From: Planctomycetaceae bacterium
GTDB taxonomy: Bacteria; Planctomycetota; Planctomycetia; Planctomycetales; Planctomycetaceae
Reading direction: 5' to 3'
DNA: 62,770 nt
Assembly (NCBI GenBank): GCA_020426485.1
Contig: JAGQPY010000002.1
Span: 1 to 62,770 of the forward strand
Shown here one piece after another: positions 22,609-28,291 of the stretch (position 1 is the first letter of the stretch; each line of letters opens with the position of its first letter). Made by a program: the position numbers and the translations under genes. The notes beneath the pieces were generated by a model, which saw nothing but the letters and a program-made list of their open reading frames with translations, made no database searches and was not told where the DNA came from.

Positions 22609-23637
22609 CTATTTGCTGAGAATCTGACGGACTGTCTCGTTTGCTTCTTTCTGAGCTGCCGCAAGCACATCCGCGACTCGAACGGTGTTGAACCCCTGCC
22701 GCTTGCTCTCGTCCGCTGCTTCCATGAAGGCATAGATCTCGATGGTTTCCTGCGGACTGACGGGAGCTTTCCCGGATCGAAAGAACTTCACGATTTCTTC
22801 CACGAGCGGTGCGTATCCATCATAGCCACCGACGGGACCCACGCCTTTCGTTCCAAAAGCTGTTCCTCCGTAACCGCCCTTTCCGGCTCGAATACCGCGG
22901 AATGTTCCGATCCTTCCGCCAGACCAGGTGCCGGTGACCTGATCGAAGTCCTTCGTCTGAGTTCGGACAACAGTTTCAATCCCCGAGCCCATAGCCGTGA
23001 ATAATGTTTCGACGCCGTGAATACCATACCAGAACAGATCCGGATGAGTAGCCTCCAGAGAACACGGTGAATAGGTGTCACAGCCAGTGACTTCGCCAAG
23101 CGAACCATTGCGGATGGCTTGAACTCCGGATGCGAATCTCAGTGACGAAGACGAGAAGACGGGCGTTCCATAGTGCTCAGCCAGTTTGAAGATTGCGAGG
23201 CCATCGCTGAGTGATCCGGCGATGGGCTTGTCGATAAAACAGGGCTTTCCGGCCTTCAGTACAGGAATGATCTGTTCCAGGTGAGGCCGGCCATCGTTGG
23301 TTTCCAGCAGCACGGCATCGACCATGCTGACCATCGTTGGCAGATCGTCAACAATCTCAACGCCCAGTTTCCGGATTGCTTCCGTATACTCCGGAACTCG
23401 TGAAACGCTGCTCGGGATATCCGGGGAACCCTTGGGGTACACCATCACAACTTTGCACCCCGGAATGTGTTTCGGGTCATCGGCATTGTTCAGAATCTTT
23501 GTGAACGCCAGACAGTGAGAGGTGTCCAGACCAATCATCCCGATCTTCAGGTCTTCGGCAGACACTGAACTGCCGAAGAAGAGACTGACTGTGGTGAGGA
23601 CGACAACGAGCAGCGACGATGGGAGGGGGCTTGGCAT
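22609..23637 (-). CDS. Gfo/Idh/MocA-family oxidoreductase with an N-terminal signal peptide
   Basis: LKIGMIGLDTSHCLAFTKILN Rossmann-type start follows the signal-like MPSPLPSSLLVVVLTTVSLFFGSSVSA. Confidence 0.88.
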   Translation of the reverse strand: MPSPLPSSLLVVVLTTVSLFFGSSVSAEDLKIGMIGLDTSHCLAFTKILNNADDPKHIPGCKVVMVYPKGSPDIPSSVSRVPEYTEAIRKLGVEIVDDLPTMVSMVDAVLLETNDGRPHLEQIIPVLKAGKPCFIDKPIAGSLSDGLAIFKLAEHYGTPVFSSSSLRFASGVQAIRNGSLGEVTGCDTYSPCSLEATHPDLFWYGIHGVETLFTAMGSGIETVVRTQTKDFDQVTGTWSGGRIGTFRGIRAGKGGYGGTAFGTKGVGPVGGYDGYAPLVEEIVKFFRSGKAPVSPQETIEIYAFMEAADESKRQGFNTVRVADVLAAAQKEANETVRQILSK

Positions 23638-23868: not shown

Positions 23869-24714
23869 CTAACGAACGCCTTCGTGGCACGCATCTGCGA
23901 GCGAAGATCCGGCGGCTGGATCGCACGACGTTTCTGACAAATGTTGCTGATTATCTGTTGAAGCCGAAGAGTCCGGGGTTGCAGAAGCAGGCCGGGAATC
24001 ACGATGTTTCTTTCGATACCGGTTGGCATCGTATTTCCAGAGACCGGCAAACAACACGAAGAAACAGATGCAGGTCCACTGGTACCCCGTCAGTCCCCAT
24101 GTGAGCCGGATTTCAGGTCTCAGGTATTCGGTCAGGAAGCGAAAGACGAAGTAGCTCAGGAAATAGAGTTTGATCAACTGCTCTCGGAAGCAGCCTTTTT
24201 GCAGCAACCTTGCTGCGGTCACCGCGAATGTCAGGTGAAACATGAATTCATAAAACTGCGTCGGATGGCGAGGGTGTGAGTCAACGTTCGGAAATGTGAT
24301 TCCCCACGGCAATTCTGTTGGTAAACCGTAGCAGCACCCGCCAAAAAAACACGCCAGTCGCCCGATGGCAATCGATGCCGCGACAGGGACAACAAACTGG
24401 TCTCCGGTTTTTTCCGTCAGCCCGATGCCCTTTTTGGCGAGTTCCACGCCGATGTATCCGCCCGTCATTCCAAACAGAATGGTTTTGCCTCCAATCCACA
24501 TCCCGTCAGGATTCTGGAATCCCGGAACGCCGGGCAGCAGGAAAGGCACCTTCGCCGCTAGAAATGCGCCGGAAAACGCACCCAGTCCAAGCCAGATCTG
24601 TTCAAATCGATCGAGCCCCGCAGGCGACGGGTATCGTCGCTTCAGGCAAGCGCCGGTGATGACGGCGATCAGCATAATCAGCGGATAGAACTCCGGATGC
24701 CTTCCGCCGACCAT
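23869..24714 (-). CDS. lgt: Prolipoprotein diacylglyceryl transferase
   Basis: Lgt signature PNVDSHPRHPTQFYEF and GGKTILFGMTGGYIG. Polytopic membrane profile. ATG start. Confidence 0.92.
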   Translation of the reverse strand: MVGGRHPEFYPLIMLIAVITGACLKRRYPSPAGLDRFEQIWLGLGAFSGAFLAAKVPFLLPGVPGFQNPDGMWIGGKTILFGMTGGYIGVELAKKGIGLTEKTGDQFVVPVAASIAIGRLACFFGGCCYGLPTELPWGITFPNVDSHPRHPTQFYEFMFHLTFAVTAARLLQKGCFREQLIKLYFLSYFVFRFLTEYLRPEIRLTWGLTGYQWTCICFFVLFAGLWKYDANRYRKKHRDSRPASATPDSSASTDNQQHLSETSCDPAAGSSLADACHEGVR

Positions 24715-24809: not shown

Positions 24810-26333
24810 TCACGTCTGACCAATGATTGTCAGGGGAATCGGTTCAGCCGTTTTAGATTCTGCGCCCGATAACGGTGGCAAAGGAAGATGTCCGTCCCGA
24901 TACAGCACGTTATATGCTGAGAACGGTATGAGATGTCCCGACGGAAGCACAAAGTGGACACATGACTTCATCAGTTGCCGAACATCAAAGTTGTAAGCAT
25001 CCATGAATGAGGTCGTTGTGATGCGAAACATATCGGCGGGGGCCAGCTCCTGCTGCATTGCTCGCTGAAAAAACTCCTGCGCCAGATTCAGTTCAGTTGC
25101 AGAAAGGTCAGAAGTGCCGGCTGTCAGCGTTGAGACTGCTCGACGAGGACCGGTCACGGGTTGCCGGTCAGTTGAAGGTGTAGCGCATCCACCGGAAGTA
25201 CAGCTTTGTCTTGAGAGATACTCCTGAATTAAATCTCTGGCCCGCTGACGGTTGAAGGTGATTCGCCCCGACAACAGATCAAGGTGGTTTTCCAGATCCA
25301 CAAACCGTGCCAGTGGCAGCGAATTCTCCAGACTTCTGTAGGCATAAGCCAGCGTGTGGCCGTTCGGATGAGCACACGGCAGAGGTGAAAAATCAGACTC
25401 TCGCCACAGTCCATCGGTTTGAGTCGACACGGCGTGGATCACATCAGGGAACGTGATCCGCTGTTCCAGATGTTCCGGCAGAATGCACCGGCCGGAATAG
25501 GTGGCGGGCTGAAAACTGACTCCTGTAACCCAGGGGCGCGCCATTCCAAACTTTACGATTTCACCGATCTGGTGCTCGTTGACGCTCGGCTGCAGTGTGC
25601 AGACAAGAATGGTGTTCAGTCCCGCTTTTCCAAGCCGTTCAATGGCTGAAAGCTTGATGTCGAGCAATCGGTCTCCGCGAAGTGAGGCGTTGATGTCATC
25701 CGTGAAGCCGTCAAACTGCAGATAGATTTCGGTGCGATGTCGAAGCCTGGCCACTCGTTCAAGAAACTGGTTGTCTCTGGCAAACCGAATGCCGTTGGTA
25801 TTGATCATCACGATGTCAATCGGCTGACGACACGCGTACTCATGGATTTCGTGAAATTGGGGGTGGACTGTTGGTTCGCCACCGGACAGCTGCAGGATTT
25901 CCGGCTGCCCTTCCACTTCGACCAGTCGATCGATCGCCCTTTGACATTCTTCCAGTGTCAGATTCACGCCGCCAGGTCCACTGACTGCAAAGCACATCGG
26001 GCATTCGAGATTGCAGTTGGCGGTGATTTCCAGCAGCCCAATGCACGTGTGCTGTTCGTGCTCTGTACACAACCCGCAGTCATAGGGACATCCACGTCGC
26101 GGGGCGATTCCGAAGGATCGCGGTACTTTGCCGGGAAGACTGTAGTCCGTTCGGTCAAACCAGCTGGCATCACTGCAGACGAAGTCGTCTCGAACGCCGT
26201 GTTCAGGACACGATTTCCGAAAGTAGACTCGCGAACCGCGACTGATAATTTTCGCCGGGACCACGGTCAGACATTCAGGACACAGACTCTGTGTTGTTCC
26301 CAGAAATGTATAGTCGCGATAGACAGTCATCAT
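24810..26333 (-). CDS. Radical SAM enzyme with an N-terminal zinc-ribbon/rubredoxin-like motif and extra Cys clusters (COG1964 / Tes-GDGT-MAS-like by motif pattern)
   Basis: CPECLTVVPAKIISRGSRVYFRKSCPEHG, then CPYDCGLCTEHEQHTC, then the radical SAM motif ANCNLECPMC and SGGEPT. Tandem ATGs at 26333/26330; the longest ORF runs to 26498 and overlaps the upstream gene. Confidence 0.88.
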   Translation of the reverse strand: MMTVYRDYTFLGTTQSLCPECLTVVPAKIISRGSRVYFRKSCPEHGVRDDFVCSDASWFDRTDYSLPGKVPRSFGIAPRRGCPYDCGLCTEHEQHTCIGLLEITANCNLECPMCFAVSGPGGVNLTLEECQRAIDRLVEVEGQPEILQLSGGEPTVHPQFHEIHEYACRQPIDIVMINTNGIRFARDNQFLERVARLRHRTEIYLQFDGFTDDINASLRGDRLLDIKLSAIERLGKAGLNTILVCTLQPSVNEHQIGEIVKFGMARPWVTGVSFQPATYSGRCILPEHLEQRITFPDVIHAVSTQTDGLWRESDFSPLPCAHPNGHTLAYAYRSLENSLPLARFVDLENHLDLLSGRITFNRQRARDLIQEYLSRQSCTSGGCATPSTDRQPVTGPRRAVSTLTAGTSDLSATELNLAQEFFQRAMQQELAPADMFRITTTSFMDAYNFDVRQLMKSCVHFVLPSGHLIPFSAYNVLYRDGHLPLPPLSGAESKTAEPIPLTIIGQT

Positions 26334-26370
26334 TCCCTCAACTGCTGATATGCCGGGTAAGATGGCACGT

Positions 26371-26715
26371 TCACGCTTTATTTGATTCGTCAAACCGAAT
26401 CGGAGCCTTCGGTGTCGTGGCACTTCGTACCAGCGCTCGCCCCATCCCGATTCCGGCGGCAGTTGCTGCCATCGTGCAGATGATAAGGCCAATCGCAACG
26501 CCCGCTTCCCCGATCTTCAGCATCTGCATCAGAGGAAAGCCGAGAAAGACGACTCCCAGGCAGCTGCAGAAAAACGCACATCCCGCCGCGAACAGTGAGA
26601 CGACCAGAATTCCGATCATTGTCAGGATGCCGGGCCGCTTTCGCTGAGTTTGCGGCGAAGACGCGGACACCGATTCAGGTGGCTGATAGGGATTCTCGAT
26701 GTCGTTCGTGGTCAA
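26371..26715 (-). CDS. Small membrane protein (2-3 TM), unknown function
   Basis: 114-aa ORF with a TTG start. NPYQPPES N-terminus, then ILTMIGILVVSLFAAGCAFFCSCLGVVFLGF and GVAIGLIICTMAATAAGIGMG. Confidence 0.6.
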   Translation of the reverse strand: MTTNDIENPYQPPESVSASSPQTQRKRPGILTMIGILVVSLFAAGCAFFCSCLGVVFLGFPLMQMLKIGEAGVAIGLIICTMAATAAGIGMGRALVRSATTPKAPIRFDESNKA

Positions 26716-26812: not shown

Positions 26813-28291
26813 TCAATCGGGTAGCTCTTCGCCACGTGTTTCCTTTGCCAGCAGAGTCACCACGACTCCGACAGCAAACAGCGGGATCATGTAGGTTGAC
26901 GACTGGTTGGGAGTCCATTTCAGCAAACCGCTGGCAAGGATGGCTGCCGCCGAACCGATTCGGCCGGCATTAAAGCAGAAGCCGGTCCCTGTACCTCGCA
27001 GTCGCGTGGGGAAGAGTTCCGGAAAGTAAACGGCATAGCCGGCGTGCATGCCCAGCGTCAGAAAGCCGAAAACTGGTAAAAACACGAGCAGAACTCCACG
27101 AGAATACTCGGGCGAATCGAGCACGTAGAACAGAACCATGGCGGCCAGAAAGCCACCGAGATGATAGAAAACGAATGCGCCTTTACGACCGATGAGGTTG
27201 GAGATGGCTCCGAACAAAACGAGGCCCAGTCCACCTCCCAGAACCATCACCAGAAACATGCCCGTCATTTCTTCCTGCTTCACTCGGCTTTTATGTTCCT
27301 TCATCGCCTGGTCACGCGCGGACAGTTGTGCTTCCGAGGCCGAATCCCAGTTCACATCAGCCAGTCCGGCTTCCGCCAGTACCGCAGCCGGATCACGATC
27401 CGCTCTCCGCTTGAGCGTGTCTTTGCCGTAGATGTGACAGCCCCAGAACGTTGTGAGTCCAATTGTGGCAAGGCTGACGCCAACGATGGTGTTGCGGAGG
27501 TACGTCGGCTTGAACAGGTCGGAAAGTGAACCCGTTCTCTGAGTCGCATCCTGACGTTCTCGCTCCCGAGCCTTAACCCACTGTTCCGGTTCACGCATCT
27601 TCCAGCGAATGAAGACGGTCAGCAGAGCCGGCAGGACGCCAATCACAAACCCCAGTCGCCAGGTATTTTCTTCCAGCACCTGAGCACTGATGATGAAGTA
27701 TCCCACCGCGACGGCCATCAGTGTTCCAAACACACTGGAAGCGTGAAAGATGGATCCCATCACGGCTCGCGAACGTTTCGGCATGACTTCCGCCACCATG
27801 GCACTGGCGACGGCCCATTCGCCGCCGACACCCATGGCCACAAGGAATCGCAGAGCCACCATCTGCCATGGAGCGTTGGCCAGTGCTGTGACGCAGGTGA
27901 AAACCGAATAGAACAGAATGGTGATGATCATCGTCTTCGAGCGGCCGATGCGGTCGCTCAGAATTCCGAACAGTACACCGCCAAAAGCACCTCCCAGAAG
28001 AAACGACGCCAAAGCGTAGTTATTCCACGATGCGATGGCTTTTCGAGTGGCATCGTCAATGGCCGAAGGATTGGCTCCCAGTAGTTGCGGCATCGCATCA
28101 TTCATGCTGGCCACGAAGACCTGACCTTCGAAGACGTCAAACACCCAACCCAGCGAAGCGATCAGTAACACGAGCCACTGATACGATGAAATGCCCTCAT
28201 ACCATTTCAGTGGCTGCTCCGGCGTGGTGAGTTGGCTGTCGTTCGATTGGTTAGATGATCCCGGTGCGTCCTCGATTCGTTGGTCGCTCAT
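26813..28291 (-). CDS. MFS transporter
   Basis: 492 aa with about 12 hydrophobic segments. MFS signature GILSDRIGRSKTM. ATG start. Confidence 0.92.
   Translation of the reverse strand: MSDQRIEDAPGSSNQSNDSQLTTPEQPLKWYEGISSYQWLVLLIASLGWVFDVFEGQVFVASMNDAMPQLLGANPSAIDDATRKAIASWNNYALASFLLGGAFGGVLFGILSDRIGRSKTMIITILFYSVFTCVTALANAPWQMVALRFLVAMGVGGEWAVASAMVAEVMPKRSRAVMGSIFHASSVFGTLMAVAVGYFIISAQVLEENTWRLGFVIGVLPALLTVFIRWKMREPEQWVKARERERQDATQRTGSLSDLFKPTYLRNTIVGVSLATIGLTTFWGCHIYGKDTLKRRADRDPAAVLAEAGLADVNWDSASEAQLSARDQAMKEHKSRVKQEEMTGMFLVMVLGGGLGLVLFGAISNLIGRKGAFVFYHLGGFLAAMVLFYVLDSPEYSRGVLLVFLPVFGFLTLGMHAGYAVYFPELFPTRLRGTGTGFCFNAGRIGSAAAILASGLLKWTPNQSSTYMIPLFAVGVVVTLLAKETRGEELPD

Follow-up and report, generated by a model that had tools for sequence, protein, structure and literature searches.

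An unnamed, Lgt-coupled bacterial branch of the Tes/TrsS radical SAM superfamily in Planctomycetota and other phyla

Introduction

Which function might an enzyme of the radical S-adenosylmethionine (SAM) class that resembles the archaeal tetraether lipid synthase have when it is encoded next to a gene of the prolipoprotein diacylglyceryl transferase (Lgt) family in a planctomycete? This question is raised by two adjacent genes in a 62,770-nt stretch of DNA from a Planctomycetaceae bacterium (assembly GCA_020426485.1, contig JAGQPY010000002.1, positions 1 to 62,770), hereafter called the window:

24810..26333, minus strand: radical SAM gene of the Tes/TrsS superfamily, 507 amino acids (translation, Pfam, NCBIfam, match to 7TOL, AlphaFold2 (AF2) model and Foldseek)
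23869..24714, minus strand: divergent Lgt-family paralogue, 281 amino acids (Pfam LGT, TIGR00544, residue alignment, AF2 model, adjacency and fusions)

Homologues of the tetraether synthase Tes have been reported in bacteria including Planctomycetota, and they are hypothesised makers of glycerol dialkyl glycerol tetraethers of the branched type (brGDGTs), none of them functionally confirmed (PMC8941075, PMC11214058, PMC11868695, PMC13459092). An original prediction for this locus had considered such an enzyme unusual for this kind of organism; as planctomycete Tes homologues were already on record (PMC11868695, PMC11214058), their presence is not in itself unusual. The main result here is the coupling to Lgt. 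The radical SAM gene of the window belongs to an unnamed branch of the Tes/TrsS superfamily which is accompanied by, or fused to, a divergent Lgt-family gene in several bacterial phyla. With modest confidence, the two products are taken to be a two-component, membrane-bound lipid-modifying system.

Results

The radical SAM protein has the complete architecture of GDGT-MAS

The longest open reading frame (ORF) of the radical SAM gene extends from a TTG codon and covers 24810..26498. The ATG at 26333, which is preceded by GAGGGA and is the start in all homologues, was chosen instead; a database record with the identical 507-amino-acid protein exists. The protein comprises a rubredoxin domain, an N-terminal [4Fe-4S] domain, the radical SAM core and a C-terminal, cysteine-bearing domain. 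Their key residues are encoded as follows:

26199..26282, minus strand: codons of the rubredoxin-type site C18, C21, C42 and H45 (C-X2-C-X20-C-X2-H, spacing as in GDGT-MAS)
26058..26090, minus strand: codons of the N-terminal auxiliary [4Fe-4S] ligands C82, C86, C89 and H92, aligned with C73/C77/C80 and the His of GDGT-MAS
25992..26015, minus strand: codons of the radical SAM CX3CX2C motif, C107-NLE-C111-PM-C114 (translation, Pfam, conservation)
24960..25376, minus strand: C-terminal domain segment with C320, C378, C383, C458, T441/F461 and S457/S472 (conservation counts, clade comparison, HMMER alignment to 7tol)

All three cysteine motifs named in the original prediction were found in the translation; the spacing of 21 residues given there for the rubredoxin-type site, which reads C18-P-E-C21, X20, C42-P-E-H45, is actually 20. 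The archaeal enzyme has the corresponding motif C9X2C12X20C33X2H36, and its [4Fe-4S]N cluster is held by C73/C77/C80 and a conserved His (PMC9433317). The cysteines of the rubredoxin-type site were invariant in all clades sampled, and H45 was nearly so, with a few replacements by Cys. The [4Fe-4S]N site, C82-PYD-C86-GL-C89-TE-H92, was invariant in the clades linked to an LGT-family gene that are described below. Overall, the N-terminal metal-site residues were invariant in 120 close homologues and nearly invariant in 104 distant representatives, so that the motif pattern is a family signature and not a product of chance.

Profile searches placed the protein in the same family. Pfam reported PF23545 (Zn_ribbon_HMPTM, 68.6 bits) and PF04055 only, with no SPASM, twitch or RRE domain. 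A best match to another radical SAM subfamily, for example SPASM peptide maturases, would have spoken against the assignment; the best-scoring NCBIfam model was that of TrsS, while SPASM-family models matched the core only, with at most 65 bits. In a sequence search of the PDB, GDGT-MAS (7TOL) was matched with an E value of 1.3e-71. The AF2 model (predicted local distance difference test (pLDDT) 91.4, predicted template modelling score (pTM) 0.90) was aligned by Foldseek to 7tom/7tol over its full length (about 507 columns, 29% identity) with TM scores of 0.76/0.77, whereas all other radical SAM structures aligned to the core only (TM about 0.35). The match includes the C-terminal cluster/lipid domain of GDGT-MAS. 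The enzyme thus has the complete four-domain, four-metal-site architecture of GDGT-MAS.

The proposed membership in the COG1964-type (MJ0619/Tes) superfamily was borne out by the 7TOL match, the fold and the HMPTM zinc ribbon. The original prediction had listed a tetraether synthase and a pterin methylase as members of that family. The former entry stands, but the latter is not a second protein: both names refer to MJ0619, for which Lloyd et al. failed to corroborate the methylase annotation (PMC9433317).

The protein is neither a Tes nor a TrsS orthologue

Comparison with the models and sequences of Tes, as had been proposed for the locus, and of TrsS confirmed the superfamily and excluded both equivalogs. 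The Tes model NF045702 scored the protein at 292 bits against a cutoff of 450, and the TrsS model NF045646 at 342.3 bits against a cutoff of 490. For comparison, the true Tes representatives P0192 and P0248 reached 481 and 484 bits with the Tes model, and the true TrsS P0221 reached 513 bits.

Phylogenies including Tes and bacterial homologues were built with FastTree (126 rows) and with IQ-TREE under LG+C20 (49 rows). In the IQ-TREE analysis the Tes clade and the TrsS clade were each supported at 99, and the two together were split from the rest at 99. The radical SAM protein of the window fell into a clade made up of Planctomycetota only and linked to LGT-family genes (support 100). A second, multi-phylum LGT-linked clade (support 97) was joined with the planctomycete clade at 92. 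FastTree likewise placed the protein outside the Tes and TrsS clades.

The C-terminal site also differs from that of Tes. T441 and F461 stand at the positions of Met439 and Tyr459, which are reported as completely conserved in 1000 archaeal homologues; T441 was present in every one of the 18 planctomycete-clade members. Ser457 and Ser472 occupy two Tes-type Cys positions. C320, C378, C383 and C458 were conserved in the close homologues instead (counts among 120, clade comparison), and from this conservation they may form one cluster site. As the M439A variant of GDGT-MAS is still active, these C-terminal differences weaken membership in Tes but do not exclude similar chemistry. The protein is therefore like GDGT-MAS/Tes (MJ0619; PDB 7TOL, 7TOM) in its four domains and its rubredoxin, [4Fe-4S]N and radical SAM motifs; unlike Tes, it has the additional conserved Cys378/Cys383, is bacterial and is coupled to an Lgt-family protein. 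No LGT gene was present at L036, the one locus with flanks among the five Tes-clade rows. The protein is an equivalog of neither Tes nor TrsS and belongs to a separate bacterial branch of the superfamily.

TrsS, a (seleno)protein described by NF045646, belongs to the same superfamily, but the true TrsS P0221 groups with Tes and apart from the radical SAM protein of the window. A literature search found no published function of TrsS; the one paper found to name it lists it as a selenoprotein (PMC13188914). Mss, the membrane-spanning lipid synthase of Thermotoga and Thermoanaerobacter, is a radical SAM enzyme from bacteria whose substrates are lipid tails. Since no Tes homologues were detected in Mss carriers (Sahonero-Canavesi 2022, PMC13159169), Mss is a different radical SAM family; it is set apart by its description, and the likeness is one of functional analogy only.

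One orthologue seems to carry selenocysteine, which recalls the (seleno)protein TrsS. In genome G197 (locus L011, contig C73, minus strand, approximately 1504-2901; 53% identity) a single in-frame TGA follows directly on ACCAPGES within the C-terminal Cys loop, and beyond it the conserved domain is encoded in the same reading frame. SelA (552 bits) and SelB (313 bits) are both encoded in this genome. The in-frame TGA together with SelA and SelB suggests selenocysteine and a chemically active C-terminal loop; judged from the gene sequence, this orthologue is probably a selenocysteine-containing form.

The neighbouring gene encodes a dedicated, divergent Lgt paralogue

The original prediction had placed the radical SAM gene next to lgt. 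The neighbour does belong to the LGT family (PF01790, 96.1 bits against a cutoff of 24.9), but it is not lgt proper: the TIGR00544 equivalog model gave 42.7 bits against a cutoff of 118.9. Its AF2 model (pLDDT 85.9) had 5azb as its sole significant structural match (TM 0.55). A second LGT-family gene of the same genome (contig C111; L001, 1429-2520, minus strand) is near-canonical, with 186.7 bits for the Pfam model and 117.3 bits for TIGR00544.

Relative to E. coli Lgt (PDB 5AZB, PF01790) the partner is shorter, with a core of about 235 amino acids, is present as a second copy and is often fused to the radical SAM enzyme. Like the other radical-SAM-linked paralogues, it keeps the equivalents of G142, R143, G154, Y235, R239 and E243, residues of the signature motif and of the pocket around the second phosphatidylglycerol-binding site of E. 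coli Lgt (PMC4728403). It has Leu for H103 and Cys for both N146 and E151. When the four essential residues His103, Arg143, Glu151 and Arg239 of the E. coli enzyme were inspected, only the two arginines were retained. His103, part of the HGGL motif, is the proposed binder of the lipobox peptide (PMC4728403); across 47 radical-SAM-linked paralogues its position was occupied by V, M, L or I, and HGGL was absent from all of them. N146 and E151 are likewise replaced in these paralogues. The downstream gene is thus a dedicated divergent paralogue and not the housekeeping lgt.

A cysteine signature, GR..CF..GCC.G, was considered as a mark specific to the paralogues and was rejected because the near-canonical Lgt of the same genome has the same cysteines. 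In this latter protein N146 and E151 are both replaced by Cys and His103 by Tyr, and the N-terminus is extended by about 80 amino acids; going by these residues, even the housekeeping Lgt of planctomycetes may depart from the E. coli pattern.

The radical SAM branch and the Lgt paralogue are coupled across phyla

In tblastn searches with the paralogue of the window, an LGT-family gene was found adjoining the radical SAM gene in Planctomycetota loci and beside it in most of 80 loci from named genomes. For 72 of the 77 locus-derived members of the LGT-linked clades the fetched locus contained an LGT-family gene, which in 64 cases lay within 600 bp, compared with one of 32 outside these clades. 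Planctomycete-clade members have the LGT gene downstream, whereas in the multi-phylum clade it is mostly found upstream.

The two genes also occur as a single ORF comprising LGT, Zn_ribbon_HMPTM and Radical_SAM (P0132, P0191), in at least 50 distinct 90% clusters. In these fusions LGT comes first and the radical SAM part forms the C-terminus, an order which fits membrane anchoring if the C-terminus of Lgt is cytoplasmic, as we take it to be from the published topology of Lgt. Tepidisphaerales and Verrucomicrobiota are among the sources, and one fusion lies on a 6.2 Mb contig. The LGT part of P0191 shares 55% identity with planctomycete paralogues and 43% with that of the window. On the contig of this fusion (L119, 4686-6065, plus strand), the next gene overlaps the fusion end and encodes a 459-amino-acid protein with a rhodanese domain; this single case hints at sulfur transfer.

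The presence of the paralogue follows that of the radical SAM gene within the family to which the window belongs: each of the two genomes with the radical SAM gene had two PF01790 matches, and each of the seven genomes without it (all 99% complete) had one. The radical SAM gene was found in one of eight other genomes of this family, and a homologue (E≤1e-20) in 50 of 201 sampled Planctomycetota genomes, a patchy distribution. LGT-like genes flank the branch in at least six bacterial phyla; the LGT-linked branch was recorded in Planctomycetota, Bacteroidota, Bacillota, Pseudomonadota, Chloroflexota, Gemmatimonadota and Verrucomicrobiota. Among its carriers are Pedobacter, Mucilaginibacter, Arenibacter, Maribacter, Olleya, Paenibacillus, Rhodoplanes, Ktedonosporobacter and Gemmatimonadaceae. 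No paper that connects Lgt to Tes or to GDGT radical SAM enzymes was found in the library searched.

Other branches of the superfamily have other partners

A different clade has, in place of an LGT gene, a gene for a class I SAM methyltransferase immediately after the radical SAM gene. This arrangement was seen at the following loci:

L049, 5668-6459, plus strand, and 15 other loci: radical SAM gene, then methyltransferase gene
L050, L051, L053, L055-L058, L061-L063, L065-L067, L069: other methyltransferase-linked loci

The methyltransferase is DVU_1556-like or ArsM-like (NF045667, 129 bits against a cutoff of 155), and a fusion of methyltransferase and radical SAM enzyme was also found (P0178). 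This clade comprises Chloroflexota, Acidobacteriota, Actinomycetota and one thaumarchaeotal metagenome-assembled genome, and it includes acidobacterial 'Tes homologues' of the kind considered as brGDGT candidates. Further fusions (P0224, P0227, P0193, P0209) join a MobA-like NTP transferase, in some cases together with an HD domain, to radical SAM, or radical SAM to DUF5714 or to an AMP-binding domain. Such diverse domain fusions point to several distinct functional contexts in the superfamily. Three planctomycete loci (L013, L024, L034) represent a clade with His at the Met439 position and tandem paralogous pairs of radical SAM genes without LGT; they may correspond to the Tes/Gms-type clusters mentioned in PMC11214058.

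Other neighbours are not conserved partners

The co-directional run of a major facilitator superfamily (MFS) transporter gene, a small ORF, the radical SAM gene and the LGT-family gene, as originally described, was recovered by ORF and Pfam analysis. The remaining neighbours of the pair are:

26371..26715, minus strand: 114-amino-acid ORF with three hydrophobic segments (hydropathy scan), 37 nt upstream of the radical SAM gene
26813..28291, minus strand: MFS transporter (Pfam Sugar_tr/MFS_1)
22609..23637, minus strand: GFO/IDH/MocA-type oxidoreductase (Pfam PF01408)

The 114-amino-acid ORF had no Pfam or NCBIfam match, no homologue besides itself in 5.8 billion proteins, and no tblastn counterpart in related loci besides one weak match in L005. 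As an orphan with neither family nor counterpart, it was rejected as a conserved member of the module and as a precursor of a ribosomally synthesised and post-translationally modified peptide (RiPP). The oxidoreductase gene lies downstream of the LGT gene, and the 231 nt that separate the two contain a weak terminator-like site. In more than 110 related loci, tblastn gave no match to the MFS transporter beside the pair, and matches to the oxidoreductase were confined to the window's own loci; both were rejected as partners since they stand beside the pair in no related locus. A promoter scan yielded no sigma-70-like sites. All-versus-all clustering of the ORFs of 81 loci returned three clusters and no more, namely radical SAM, LGT and the methyltransferase of the other clade, and the idea of a conserved third gene was dropped. 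The membrane-lipid context read into the run is thus retained for the LGT-family gene and not for the MFS transporter or the 114-amino-acid ORF, which by tblastn and homologue search are not conserved partners.

Two families of multi-pass membrane proteins without Pfam assignment (about 235 and about 160-200 amino acids) were observed upstream of the pair in several planctomycete loci, and neither adjoins the pair in the window:

L004, 5903-7718; L006, 5160-6448; L039, 4236-5985; L040, 4653-5381; L041, 4924-5898; L044, 129-1531; L046, 4383-5018: loci of the upstream membrane proteins

In two complete planctomycete genomes (L004, 1673-5442; L006, 930-4659) a fatty-acid synthesis cluster, fabD-fabG-acpP-fabF, is encoded on the opposite strand within a few kb of the pair; no such cluster is near the pair in the window.

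Discussion

A proposed membrane-bound, two-component lipid-modifying system

The radical SAM enzyme and its Lgt-family partner are read here as two components of one lipid-modifying system at the membrane, a reading that we favour by a small measure. From the homology to GDGT-MAS and the nature of the partner, a lipid tail would be the best candidate for the substrate, and to this extent the originally suggested action on lipid tails is supported. The Lgt-like protein, which appears to keep the glycerophospholipid pocket (equivalents of Arg143, Arg239, Tyr235 and Glu243), would tether the radical SAM enzyme at the membrane's cytoplasmic face while holding or delivering a glycerolipid. Because the HGGL/His103 peptide site is lost, it probably serves to tether the enzyme and hold lipid and not to lipidate ordinary lipoproteins. 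The radical SAM cluster would then cleave SAM, and the 5'-deoxyadenosyl radical would abstract a hydrogen at an unactivated carbon in a lipid chain that lies in a hydrophobic tunnel. The C-terminal Cys site (C320, C378, C383, C458), with a probable selenocysteine loop in one orthologue, might assist in trapping the resulting radical. The outcome would be a new C-C or C-S bond, and the product need not be a membrane-spanning lipid.

Several points weigh against this reading. The lipid substrate is deduced solely by way of the homology to GDGT-MAS and the Lgt partner. The catalytic C-terminal site is unlike that of Tes (Met439 to Thr, Tyr459 to Phe, two Tes-type Cys to Ser), and the chemistry may therefore differ. 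Four of the 18 close planctomycete loci have no LGT gene in the flank, and the superfamily is functionally diverse, with other branches tied to methyltransferases, MobA-like nucleotidyltransferases, DUF5714 and AMP-binding domains. There is also a problem of topology. The pocket of E. coli Lgt faces the periplasmic leaflet (PMC4728403), whereas the C-terminally fused radical SAM domain is expected in the cytoplasm, and a single lipid would have to reach both.

Alternative functions

The similarity to GDGT-MAS raises the alternative of a bacterial tetraether or membrane-spanning lipid synthase, which would couple two fatty-acyl or alkyl glycerolipids tail to tail and yield lipids of the diabolic-acid or brGDGT type. 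The fold and the N-terminal cofactor sites are as in GDGT-MAS, the activity of the M439A variant implies that coupling may survive the loss of the Met, Planctomycetota are among the proposed sources of brGDGTs (PMC11868695), and the protein passes the BLAST-type criterion by which 'Tes homologues' are recognised in the literature (E<1e-50; PMC8941075). We nevertheless regard this function as unlikely. The protein does not reach the equivalog cutoff for Tes and branches outside the Tes clade, and Tyr459 as well as several Tes-type C-terminal cysteines are replaced. Moreover, members of the LGT-linked branch are common among aerobic Bacteroidota, Paenibacillus and Alphaproteobacteria, and we know of no report of membrane-spanning lipids from these groups. 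Even for bacterial Tes the function is not experimentally confirmed (PMC11868695).

Alternatively, the pair might act on a protein: a dedicated acceptor would receive a diacylglyceryl or similar group from the Lgt paralogue, after which the radical SAM enzyme would remodel or cross-link this lipid anchor or the acceptor Cys. Enzymes of the Lgt family transfer diacylglyceryl onto a thiol, and R143 and R239 are retained in the paralogue. The 114-amino-acid upstream ORF has an RKR-hydrophobic-AAGC segment resembling a lipobox, and small membrane proteins are encoded upstream in several planctomycete loci. However, H103/HGGL, essential in E. coli Lgt and the proposed peptide binder, is absent from all paralogues, the small ORF is without homologues and no third gene is conserved across phyla. 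A protein target appears rather improbable.

A non-lipid small molecule such as a cofactor, a pterin or a metalloid compound is improbable as the substrate. Databases still label homologues as '7,8-dihydro-6-hydroxymethylpterin dimethyltransferase', and the sister clade is followed by an ArsM/DVU_1556-like methyltransferase. The branch studied here, on the other hand, is tied to an integral-membrane lipid-binding protein and not to a methyltransferase, and the pterin methylase activity was left uncorroborated by Lloyd et al., whereas the MJ0619 structure contains lipids (PMC9433317). It is very improbable that the enzyme is a RiPP maturase with the 114-amino-acid ORF as its substrate: this ORF does lie 37 nt upstream, but it is an orphan absent from other loci, no SPASM, twitch or RRE domain was detected in the enzyme, and the fold over the whole length is that of GDGT-MAS.

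Implications

BLAST hits to 'Tes homologues' have been used to nominate bacterial producers of brGDGTs, which serve as palaeoclimate biomarkers, Planctomycetota included (PMC8941075, PMC11868695). The radical SAM protein of the window would pass such thresholds and yet sits in a distinct branch, set apart by the make-up of its C-terminal active site and by its Lgt-like partner; counts of Tes hits therefore probably mix functions, which affects how they are to be read.

Under the preferred reading of a membrane-bound lipid-modifying pair, the Lgt-coupled branch could, more tentatively, be an unrecognised and widespread bacterial machine for making new modified membrane glycerolipids or lipid anchors, with the Lgt-fold protein as its lipid-handling subunit. 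Its products might be, for example, tail-cross-linked, tail-to-protein-linked or sulfur- or selenium-bearing lipids. If so, this would to our knowledge be the first case of an Lgt-fold protein recruited outside lipoprotein biogenesis. The coupling to Lgt defines a concrete two-gene unit in culturable bacteria (Pedobacter, Paenibacillus, Arenibacter, Olleya), which makes the function of bacterial Tes-like enzymes directly approachable.

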